From positions 1 through 61,728 of the forward strand of contig JACNLL010000024.1 of NCBI GenBank assembly GCA_014381545.1: a stretch of 61,728 nucleotides of DNA. The letters are read 5' to 3'. Below the pieces are notes generated by a model. It did no database searches. It had not been told where the DNA came from and saw nothing but the letters and a program-made list of their open reading frames with translations. Positions within the stretch are counted from its first letter, which is position 1; the number at the start of each line of letters is the position of its first letter. Source of the stretch: Candidatus Desulfaltia bathyphila (GTDB lineage Bacteria; Desulfobacterota; Desulfobacteria; Desulfobacterales; ETH-SRB1). The position numbers and the translations under genes are program-made. Below, in pieces: positions 33,006 to 44,140 of this stretch.

Positions 33006-33058
33006 TTGAAGATTCCCTGTAGCAAGCTACGGGGAATGCGCTCGCTATTGCGGTTCAA
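33006..33058. repeat. TTGAA...TTCAA miniature repeat family, copy C (53 bp)
   Basis: TTGAAGATTCCCTGTAGCAAGCTACGGGGAATGCGCTCGCTATTGCGGTTCAA. Confidence 0.85.
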
Positions 33059-41301: not shown

Positions 41302-41718
41302 ATGAAGCGAAAAAGCAGTATTATTATGGCAATTTTAATTGTTGTACTCGCAGGAGCTTCTTTTTTTTACTTGTTACAAAAGAGTACAGCAAAACCGCCT
41401 GATTCGAATACTGAGGAGGATTTTTTAAATGCTCTGAAGAGCGGCAAGCCTGTCCTGGTCGATTTTGGGTCGAATTCATGTATCCCATGCCGCCAGATGA
41501 GACCCATACTTCATGAAGTCAAAAAGGAGTATTCAGGGAAGGCTGAAGTCCTTGTGGTCGATGTTTACAAACATAAGAACCTTGCCGTGGAACACAAAAT
41601 ACGAATGATTCCGACTCTAATATTTTTTGATTCAAACGGCAAAGAGGTTCACCGCCACCAGGGATTCATGAGCAAAAAGTTGATCATGGAGCAGTTCAGG
41701 AAAATGGATGTTAGTTAG
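41302..41718 (+). CDS. Membrane-anchored thioredoxin
   Basis: N-terminal TM, VDFGSNSCIPC, IPTLIFFD. Confidence 0.88.
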   Translation: MKRKSSIIMAILIVVLAGASFFYLLQKSTAKPPDSNTEEDFLNALKSGKPVLVDFGSNSCIPCRQMRPILHEVKKEYSGKAEVLVVDVYKHKNLAVEHKIRMIPTLIFFDSNGKEVHRHQGFMSKKLIMEQFRKMDVS

Positions 41719-41735: not shown

Positions 41736-42443
41736 GTGCTGGAAACTTTTTTCTTAACCGTTAATGAGTGGATTGCAAGCGGCACAACCATTGCGGCTTT
41801 AGGTTGTTTTTTATGGGGTATGATCAGCGTAGTCTTCAGCCCGTGTCATCTGGCATCGATTCCATTGATTGTCGCCTATGTTGGCGGGCAGGAACGGGCG
41901 GTCGATCCCAGACAGGCCGCCGTGTATTCGGCATCGTTTACCACCGGCCTGTTTATCACCATCGCACTAATCGGAATTATCTGCGCCCTGCTGGGCCGCA
42001 TGTTGGGCGACGTCGGCAATTACTGGCAAATTTTAATCGGGGGCATTCTGATCTGGGTGGCTCTTGGAATGCTCGGCGTGGAAAAATGTTCCATGTCAGG
42101 CAGTCTGCTATACCGACTTAATTTTAGGGGAGTGTTCGGTGCGTTCATGCTTGGACTCGCCTACGGCGTGCTCTCCGGTTCATGCACATTCGGGTTCATC
42201 GCGCCGATTCTGGCTATAATTACTGTTCAGCAGAAAATCGCGACAGGAATACTTTTTATCCTGCTTTTTGCCGTGGGACATTGCCTGCCTATTGTGGTTG
42301 CCGGAAGCTCTACGGCAGCCGTGAGAAAATTAATGGAAAACAGCGCCTGGCAGGGGGCGGGAACCTGGTTTCGCAAAGGCGCCGGAGCGTTGATTGGCCT
42401 GTTGGGAATTTACTTTGTCATCAGTCCATTGGTTAGTGCATAG
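41736..42443 (+). CDS. CcdA/DsbD-family transmembrane electron carrier
   Basis: SPCHLASIP and SGSCTFG.IAP cysteine motifs, six TM helices. Confidence 0.85.
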   Translation: MLETFFLTVNEWIASGTTIAALGCFLWGMISVVFSPCHLASIPLIVAYVGGQERAVDPRQAAVYSASFTTGLFITIALIGIICALLGRMLGDVGNYWQILIGGILIWVALGMLGVEKCSMSGSLLYRLNFRGVFGAFMLGLAYGVLSGSCTFGFIAPILAIITVQQKIATGILFILLFAVGHCLPIVVAGSSTAAVRKLMENSAWQGAGTWFRKGAGALIGLLGIYFVISPLVSA

Positions 42444-42489
42444 TCGTGCTCCATGGAAGTAGTAATAGATATTTTATCAAGGAGCGAAT

Positions 42490-43269
42490 ATGAAACCATT
42501 AAAGAACAAAATCAGGCGGATGGTAAGGGAAAGTTATGCCGGGGTTGCTCAACCCGATGGGTGTCGGTGTTGCGGTAATTCGTCAAATCTTGCGAACATA
42601 TTAGATTTGGGTAAAAAACTCGATTATACGGATGATGAACTCGCCATTGGCCTGGGAGATGCAAATCTTGGCCTCGGATGTGGGAATCCCTTGACCATTG
42701 CAAATTTGAAACCCGGAGAAACCGTGCTTGATTTAGGAAGCGGAGCCGGCTTTGACGCATTTCTCGCAGCAAAAAGCGTTGGGAAAGAGGGAAATGTTAT
42801 CGGCGTTGACATGACGCCGGAAATGATAAATAAGGCAAAGAAGAATGCTGATAAAATGGGCATCGACAACGTTGAATTCCGATTAGCAGAGATAGAAAAG
42901 CTGCCTGTTCCTGATAATTCAGTCGATGTGGTTCTGTCAAACTGTGTGATAAATCTTTCACCGGATAAAAGAGCTGTTTTCAGAGAGCTTTTCAGAGTAT
43001 TGAAGCCAGGGGGGCGGATCAGCATATCTGATGTTTTGCGTTCAGGAGAAATCCCAAGGGAAATCAGAAATGATCCAAAAGCTTATACAGGGTGAGTATC
43101 CGGGGCTATTTCACCGGGTGAGGTGAAACAAATTCTAAACAGCTTGGGTTTTGAATCCATAACTATAACAAAAAAGGATAACAGTAAGCAAATAATCAAG
43201 AGTTGGAATATCGGAAAGGGAACAGAACTCATGGTGTTTTCTGCATATATACAAGCCCGCAAACCATAA
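42490..43269 (+). CDS. arsM: Arsenite methyltransferase, predicted selenoprotein (Sec at UGA 43093-43095)
   Basis: GLGCGNP, LDLGSGAGFD, SNCVINL; frame continues YTG-[TGA]-VSGA (normally YTGC.AGA) for 57 more codons to TAA 43269. Confidence 0.88.
43109..43128 (+). promoter_or_regulatory. SECIS-like hairpin for arsM
   Basis: TTTCACC-GGGTGA-GGTGAAA, 7-bp stem starting 13 nt after UGA. Confidence 0.7.
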
Positions 43270-43521
43270 AATCGATGGGCATTGGTCGCATGATGAGTCA
43301 TAGTCATGCATTAGAACACTTGAAGCGTGGACATTTGTTTGCAAGCCATTCTGATGCTGAAAATATTACCGGAGCAAAACCGGTTGCTTTTTTACCGGAG
43401 CAAACATTTGAATTTGAGCCGGTTATAGAAGGAGCTGTGGTCATTCATGACTTCATTATTCAAAACAAAGGGACGGTGCTTCTTGTTATCCACAGGGTAA
43501 GTTCCGGCTGAGGGTGTACGG

Positions 43522-43541
43522 CTGTCTCCAGTGTGAGACAG
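43522..43541 (+). promoter_or_regulatory. SECIS-like hairpin for DUF1573 gene
   Basis: CTGTCTC-CAGTGT-GAGACAG, 7-bp stem starting 10 nt after UGA. Confidence 0.65.
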
Positions 43542-43680
43542 ATCCCTCCGGGTAGCGAGGGAAAGATAACGGTTAAAGTGAATACCGGCGGATATGGCGG
43601 GAAAAAAGTCAGGGAAAATGTTTATATTCAGACCAATGATAAAATTCACCCTGAGCTTAGCGTAACAGTTACAGGCTGTG

Positions 43681-43734
43681 TTGAACCGCAATAGCGAGCG
43701 TATTCCCAGTAGCTTGCTACAGGGGAATCTTCAA
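43681..43734. mobile_element. TTGAA...TTCAA miniature repeat, copy E, inserted inside a CDS
   Basis: Reverse complement of copy C with 3 differences; removal restores GTT GAA AAA TTT GCA GAT (VEKFAD). Confidence 0.85.
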
Positions 43735-44140
43735 AAATTTGCAGATATCAGACCAAAAAGAATAATACTGAGAGGTTCACCAGGGCAGACGATAAAAGCA
43801 CAGGTTGAAATTACCCCGAGAATTAAATACCCGTTTAAAATAATCAGCGCAATGGCAACACAGAGAAAATACATCAAATTTAGCATTGCTGATGCCAAAA
43901 AATCGAACTCAGGAAGTTATGTGTTGACCGTTGAAAATCTAAAAAAAGAAATTGGACGATATAATGATGTGATTTATTTAAAAACAGACAGCAAATTACG
44001 CCCGGCAATACCAATCTATGTTATTGGCAATATTTTAAGCATACCATCAAACAGGGAAAAGTAGCCTGTGCAAATGATTATGAATCCGGAGAAAATCTAA
44101 ATATAAAGCAGCTTGAGATGGCACAAGAAAGGAAAATGAT

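Follow-up and report, generated by a model that had tools for sequence, protein, structure and literature searches.

Positions 43275-44064 of the window (the whole stretch of 61,728 nt analysed here, from Candidatus Desulfaltia bathyphila) very probably hold a recently inactivated copy, most likely a pseudogene, of a selenoprotein gene of the known OS_HP2 family. The copy retains an in-frame TGA that, judged from its conservation among relatives, is a genuine Sec codon of the family. It has lost its start codon and most of its signal peptide to a deletion, and a short repeat has inserted between its two domains.

Results

An in-frame TGA within a DUF1573 domain of the OS_HP2 family

Translation of the forward strand places a TGA in frame with the ORF starting at 43275 (or 43203; Table 1), and reading through it yields SSG-U-GCT. 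The peptide around the site is VIHRVSSG-U-GCTAVSS, and the longer read-through of 43275-43694 is ...FIIQNKGTVLLVIHRVSSG-U-GCTAVSSVRQIPPGSEGKITVKV... The Pfam model DUF1573 (PF07610) aligns to this product over profile positions 5-96 of 98 (E 3e-16) and covers both sides of the TGA, so the DUF1573 domain spans it; PF22544 matches the product as well (E 6e-7). The sequence-only reading had reported a TGA at the position of the DUF1573 CGC motif, domain-like sequence continuing beyond it, and a 7-bp hairpin 10 nt downstream, and all of these are present as it described.

At the family level, the read-through product matches the NCBIfam model NF041425, “OS_HP2 family (seleno)protein”, over the entire 98-position profile, with 133 bits where the curated cut-off is 100 (E 3.7e-39). 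OS_HP2 was named in 2007 in the Olavius algarvensis symbiont study (Table 2 of PMC1976440), the GOS study lists it as pfam07610 with the motif UxC and 354 Cys homologues (PMC2398784), and reviews of 2022 and 2026 catalogue “DUF1573, PF07610, UGC” as a known selenoprotein. Given the NF041425 match and these listings, the U-G-C motif predicted by the sequence-only reading is the catalogued one. By its sequence, the window gene is a member of an already known OS_HP2 / DUF1573-UGC selenoprotein family and is not new.

Table 1. Features of the OS_HP2 locus and its surroundings (window positions unless a contig is named).
Feature	Position	Strand	Basis
Thioredoxin with hydrophobic N-terminal segment; proposed redox partner	41302-41718	+	Pfam match
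CcdA/DsbD_TM thiol-electron transporter; proposed redox partner	41736-42443	+	Pfam match
ArsM, arsenite methyltransferase, upstream neighbour	42490-43269	+	NF008823, 335 bits against a cut-off of 263
5' part of OS_HP2 remnant, before the Sec codon	43275-43508	+	Translation; alignment with intact L013 and L001
Junction of 93-nt in-frame deletion	43333-43334	+	DNA alignment with closest intact relative L013; proteins P0009-P0015
UGA Sec codon, U of U-G-C; aligned to first Cys of DUF1573 CGC	43509-43511	+	
TGT, Cys of U-G-C; invariant in OS_HP2 family	43515-43517	+	Alignments
SECIS-like hairpin, 7 bp, first base 10 nt after UGA	43522-43541	+	CUGUCUC 43522-43528, loop CAGUGU, GAGACAG 43535-43541
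Second, weaker hairpin over PPGSEG codons	43544-43561	+	CCCUC...GAGGG; 92% paired, one pair changed on both sides
49-nt insertion between ...VTGCVE and KFADIRP...	43686-43734	+	Alignment with relatives; repeat match 43681-43734
Second Ig-like domain remnant, out of frame with domain 1	43735-44064	+	75-84% identity to C-terminal halves of intact homologues
Further repeat copies in own genome	C90:1857-1979, C7:26962-27083, C14:129-272		

Comparative evidence for Sec decoding

We compared the TGA site across relatives at two depths. Of 41 related genomes, about 25 have a full-length homologue whose single TGA lies at this site, and in several others the version is free of stops (Cys). A scan of species-representative genomes returned 289 related loci, and motif counts were taken on the best 80 of these 289, all from Desulfobacterales. 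Of the 66 motif sites in this set, 62 have TGA, and the frame stays open for 160-180 codons beyond each of them. Cys occupies the Sec position in protein P0004 (SCGCT) and in locus L042 (GCGCT). The sequence-only reading had staked its claim on Cys at this position in homologues and on conservation of the UGA, and both are borne out. Intact copies within the genus give a dN/dS of 0.38 for the sequence after the TGA, a value that places it under purifying selection.

The genome itself is equipped for selenocysteine. Profile searches detected selB (374 bits), selA (607 bits) and selD (376 bits, C41:20533-21459), and a tRNA-SeC(tca) lies at C85:22016-22113. The selD gene has one in-frame TGA and itself encodes a selenoprotein.

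Folded alone, the stretch after the TGA does not stand out from shuffled sequences (z = -1.5), and support for the hairpin therefore comes from conservation and comparative evidence. Intact UGA-containing homologues with a conserved hairpin, which the sequence-only reading had named as a check on its proposal, do exist: 95% of stem cells pair in 20 distinct homologues, with three pairs changed on both sides. As a control, sliding the partner by 1-3 columns gave at most 53% pairing. In a further 56 distinct sequences, from other species, pairing at the six inner positions is 91%, and TA-to-CG and CG-to-TA swaps among these produce GTCTC/GAGAC, GCTTC/GAAGC, GTTTC/GAAAC and GCCTC/GAGGC. Some of the swaps are not silent and replace residues encoded by both arms (V/R to A/K), a pattern that speaks for selection at the RNA level. 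Cys homologues L042 and L114:3217 lack the pairing.

Bacterial SECIS elements usually have a conserved G, often as GU, in the apical loop. The window loop contains both the G and the GU, but a G within the 6-nt loop is found in just 17 of the 56 family members. Nearly all family members keep the G of the closing C-G pair, and this G could take the role of the apical-loop G. We considered the second hairpin (Table 1) as a possible part of the SECIS; its pairs are mostly invariant, and it may simply reflect the Pro-Pro and Glu-Gly codons. An Rfam scan of the whole window at gathering thresholds returned no family, neither a catalogued SECIS nor any other RNA.

Most gene callers treat the TGA as an ordinary stop, so that the family would consist of short N-terminal proteins and separate downstream genes, and public databases do mostly hold fragments of 78-105 aa and of 145 aa. 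We regard this reading as extremely improbable: a single domain model spans the TGA, full-length Cys homologues exist, more than 60 species retain the TGA and the frame beyond it, with purifying selection after the TGA, the hairpin covaries, and the Sec machinery is encoded in the same genome. The public OS_HP2 entries themselves (P0005-P0008, P0025; P0009-P0019; P0020-P0034) mostly have one of three faulty forms: N-terminal pieces of 78-105 aa that end at the TGA, C-terminal pieces of 145 aa that begin at an internal Met, or full-length proteins with W at the Sec site. In P0007 (locus L004), the one entry checked for this, the W stems from a TGA that the gene caller translated as Trp.

Architecture and predicted fold of intact relatives

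Intact homologues (L001/L065, L002, L004, L013 and many others) are 230-250 aa long, about 240 aa in general, and consist of an N-terminal signal peptide, the DUF1573 domain with U-G-C, and a second domain for which Pfam has no model. The signal peptide has an AxA-type cleavage site, for example between MKLKVTMAALFCLLLFAIHSNA and ENIT. We considered a lipoprotein signal and rejected it on inspection by eye: no lipobox precedes the Cys of the h-region, and more distant homologues do not share this Cys.

The mature L065 protein was modelled with AlphaFold2 from an alignment of 62 sequences. The model (mean pLDDT 88.6) comprises two tandem beta-sandwiches, with G-U-G-C placed in the turn between strands 42-49 and 53-57. 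Foldseek searches with this model matched ASH/HYDIN-type Ig-like domains of ciliary central-pair proteins and 2qsv with E-values of 1e-10 to 1e-7. These matches were generic ASH/Ig-like folds, with no enzyme and no functional analogue among them. A sequence search of the PDB gave nothing beyond a weak match to 2qsv (E 0.002). In the family alignment A6, where the motif residues are U51 and C53, His30 and Asn36 are conserved as well.

Two lesions disrupt the window copy

Aligned with the gene of L013, which likewise directly follows an ArsM gene, the window copy has lost 93 nt in frame. In L013 the deleted segment encodes KNVTKTIIKKTNNGMWVKLKVTMAALCCLLL, comprising the start codon and the n- and h-regions of the signal peptide; TTT microhomology leaves the junction ambiguous within 43333-43337. 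Relative to the intact homologues, the 59 nt at 43275-43333 are former upstream leader that the deletion has fused in frame to the gene, and MGIGRMMSHSHALEHLKRGHL, which the sequence-only reading had taken as the N-terminus, belongs to this leader. The mature-protein sequence of the window copy begins around FASHSDAENIT.

The second lesion, the 49-nt insertion, brings in a TAG stop at 43692-43694 together with a +1 frameshift. Position 43694 is accordingly not the natural end of the gene, which lies at the TAG at 44062-44064, and in silico removal of the 49 nt gives a gap-free 220-codon alignment with the relatives. The second domain persists as a separate ORF that ends at 44064 and starts at 43735 or, with a GTG, at 43678; its sequence (43735-44064) matches no Pfam or NCBIfam model. 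Both lesions are lacking in intact relatives, and in the comparison with the 41 related genomes the window's own genome gave the only full-length-range match that TAG stops split. A search of the same genome for a second, intact OS_HP2 copy found none. The exported Ig-like Sec/Cys selenoprotein envisaged by the sequence-only reading is therefore an apt description of the family but not of the window copy, from which the start and signal peptide are deleted and the second domain is cut off.

The inserted element belongs to a dispersed repeat whose ends read TTGAA...TTCAA, and represents its short form. One search found 48 matches to this repeat in the genome and another found 41; a further copy in the window lies at 33006-33058 on the reverse strand (more examples in Table 1). 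Alignment of the two forms puts the long one at about 130 nt and the short one at 53-54 nt. The short form seems to arise by deletion between two internal copies of CCC(C/T)GTAGCTTGCT(G/A)C(G/A)GGG, as far as the alignment indicates. The repeat matches no Rfam family. The selA gene (C7:25577-26938) immediately adjoins the repeat copy on contig C7.

Could the lesions be assembly or binning artefacts in an organism that carries an intact OS_HP2? The genome (2.07 Mb, small for Desulfobacterales; 97% complete, 42% GC) is a draft of 107 contigs, probably a MAG, and more than 40 repeat copies could in principle mislead an assembler. Logan contigs, built independently of this assembly from two different runs, are nonetheless 100% identical to the window. 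Contig L063 (ERR13325268) matches over 42332-43980 and covers both lesions, and contig L064 (SRR12347140) matches over 42438-43572 and covers the deletion. The lesions are therefore not artefacts of this assembly. Moreover, the 49-nt repeat sits in unique sequence and is shorter than a read, which is not a typical cause of misassembly. Taken together, we judge an artefact to be very unlikely.

A somewhat less remote alternative, which we still hold to be unlikely, is that the remnant is functional. In-frame ATGs at 43275 and 43290 open a 139-codon Sec-containing ORF with an intact SECIS, from which a cytoplasmic single-domain selenoprotein of 139 aa ending at the repeat TAG might be made; the domain-2 ORF 43678-44064 (GTG) might be made separately. 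The frame has indeed kept its UGA, its Cys and the hairpin, the same allele occurs in two public runs, and there is no nonsynonymous excess relative to intact copies. On the other side, every intact relative encodes the signal peptide and the two domains in a single frame, the upstream ATGs have nothing resembling a Shine-Dalgarno sequence before them, and the product would run into foreign residues and a stop from the repeat. The gene has been disrupted twice independently, which, along with degraded or missing copies in genomes G008 and G007 of the same genus, points to a loss in progress.

We also asked whether substitution rates reveal relaxed selection on the window copy. Its dN/dS is 0.26-0.45 against intact copies, compared with 0.26-0.58 between intact copies, so no difference was detected and no signal of decay beyond the two lesions. 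These values neither back nor oppose a recent pseudogene, as they would be expected either if the lesions are very recent or if the fragment is still used. Elsewhere in the genus, G008 has a heavily degraded copy with seven stops (C209:3492-3839) and G007 a trace of only 27 aa (C98:1652-1732). Judged from these remains, the sequences suggest repeated loss of the OS_HP2 gene within the genus. Inactivation remains our preferred reading of the window locus.

Genomic neighbourhood

The ArsM gene upstream of the window copy itself encodes a selenoprotein: it has a TGA at 43093-43095 (AYTG-U-VSGA), and gene callers stop there at 201 aa. Its family (NF008823) is a known one, already listed in the GOS study (PMC2398784).

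Within the genus, OS_HP2 belongs to an island with the order ArsP, Thioredoxin_3, thioredoxin with a hydrophobic N-terminal segment, CcdA, (Acr3), ArsM(Sec), ..., OS_HP2, LysR, in which (NfeD, FeS-domain protein, rhodanese, MauE) lie between ArsM(Sec) and OS_HP2. The window holds a shortened version of this arsenic/thiol-redox island. Synteny of OS_HP2 with CcdA, thioredoxin, rhodanese, MauE, Acr3 and ArsM extends to about seven loci, from this genus and a few other lineages. Ca. Desulfatibia vada (L069) and another MAG (L068) share the core order CcdA, rhodanese, MauE, OS_HP2 and have Acr3 close by. In some members of the genus, a molybdopterin oxidoreductase and a 4Fe-4S partner follow downstream of the LysR gene that comes after OS_HP2 (L002 7962-11031; L046 8631-10985); this oxidoreductase could be an arsenate or chalcogen respiratory reductase.

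The redox and arsenic neighbours are absent from most loci, where OS_HP2 stands beside a HAD hydrolase instead. In the best 80 of the 289 loci, OS_HP2 adjoins a HAD hydrolase in 68 and priA in 40, and the order priA, OS_HP2, HAD hydrolase is the conserved one outside the island-type subclade (L047-L062, L070-L144). Six loci with the priA/HAD arrangement have a small conserved hydrophobic ORF of 110 aa upstream of OS_HP2. Ca. Desulfatibia vada carries both types (L069 and L129), which makes the island copy a paralogue. The taxa with this island-type paralogue are Ca. Desulfaltia, Ca. Desulfatibia vada and a small number of further Desulfobacterales; it is distinct from the core copy next to priA and the HAD hydrolase.

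Discussion

A possible role for OS_HP2

A literature search on OS_HP2/selenoprotein and DUF1573 found no experiment on any family member. From its motif, the exposed turn in the structural model and its neighbours, we infer that the intact protein most likely serves as a periplasmic redox or metal(loid)/chalcogen-binding protein. Its UGA would be decoded as Sec by SelB and tRNA-Sec, directed by the 6-7-bp hairpin that begins 10 nt downstream. The product carries a cleavable Sec-type signal peptide, followed by an ASH/HYDIN-type beta-sandwich that presents G-U-G-C-T in a tight inter-strand turn, and a second Ig-like sandwich completes the protein of about 240 aa. Once in the periplasm, the mature protein may be redox-active or bind metal(loid)s or chalcogens, As(III) included, and its selenol/thiol pair would be oxidised to a selenenylsulfide and reduced again. 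A thiol and a selenol this close together could close into a small, strained ring, which would suit them to redox exchange or chelation of soft metal(loid)s.

In the island-type paralogue, the adjacent CcdA-thioredoxin pathway would keep the selenol/thiol pair reduced. The idea of a CcdA-thioredoxin client tied to metalloids, which the sequence-only reading had raised for the window gene, finds some support in the synteny of the island subclade. Going further, island-type OS_HP2 might be the periplasmic selenol/thiol part of a module with CcdA, the anchored thioredoxin, rhodanese and MauE, dedicated to extracytoplasmic arsenic or chalcogen binding or reduction and acting together with Acr3, ArsP and Sec-ArsM. 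We put this forward tentatively, as a proposal that is more apt to fail than to hold. If it were true, the decay of the gene in the reduced 2.07-Mb genome would mark the loss of that periplasmic arsenic/chalcogen step. At the window locus, the deletion has removed the start and signal peptide and the repeat has added the stop and frameshift between the domains, so that any product would be no more than a cytoplasmic single domain lacking a signal peptide.

With regard to its significance, the detection is correct for a gene that gene callers split or misread, and it adds little to a family already present in NCBIfam and in selenoproteome catalogues. The locus has some value as a clean natural case, in a small Desulfobacterales genome, of a selenoprotein gene inactivated by a deletion and by insertion of a miniature repeat. 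Furthermore, the consistent CcdA, thioredoxin, rhodanese, MauE and arsenic-resistance neighbours of the island subclade provide a testable lead to the function of the DUF1573 CGC/UGC motif.

Comparison with known systems

The tandem beta-sandwich fold of OS_HP2 is shared with ASH/HYDIN/MSP-type Ig-like domains (PF22544), among them the uncharacterised Porphyromonas gingivalis protein in PDB entry 2qsv. This likeness is one of fold only, at 8-15% identity, and we know of no redox motif or selenocysteine in ASH/HYDIN/MSP-type proteins. In its closely spaced thiol/selenol pair, OS_HP2 resembles CXC/CGC motifs and the GCUG selenenylsulfide of thioredoxin reductase. Its scaffold differs from these: the pair sits in an Ig-like turn, not at a flavoprotein C-terminus or in a thioredoxin fold, and the activity of OS_HP2 is a proposed one.

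Cys-containing DUF1573 proteins (PF07610, CGC) are widespread in Bacteroidota and other phyla. Like OS_HP2, they have an Ig-like fold, a signal peptide when intact and the conserved signature N.G ... CGC(T). They differ in having Cys for Sec, in lacking the hairpin after the codon, and in their varying domain number and genomic context. The closest known system is the OS_HP2 family itself (NF041425), with which the window copy has in common the PF07610 domain, U-G-C at the CGC position, the SECIS hairpin after the UGA and the deltaproteobacterial (Desulfobacterales) lineage. Unlike the working members of this family, the window copy is without a start codon and signal peptide and contains the 49-nt repeat, and it is best described as a disrupted member.
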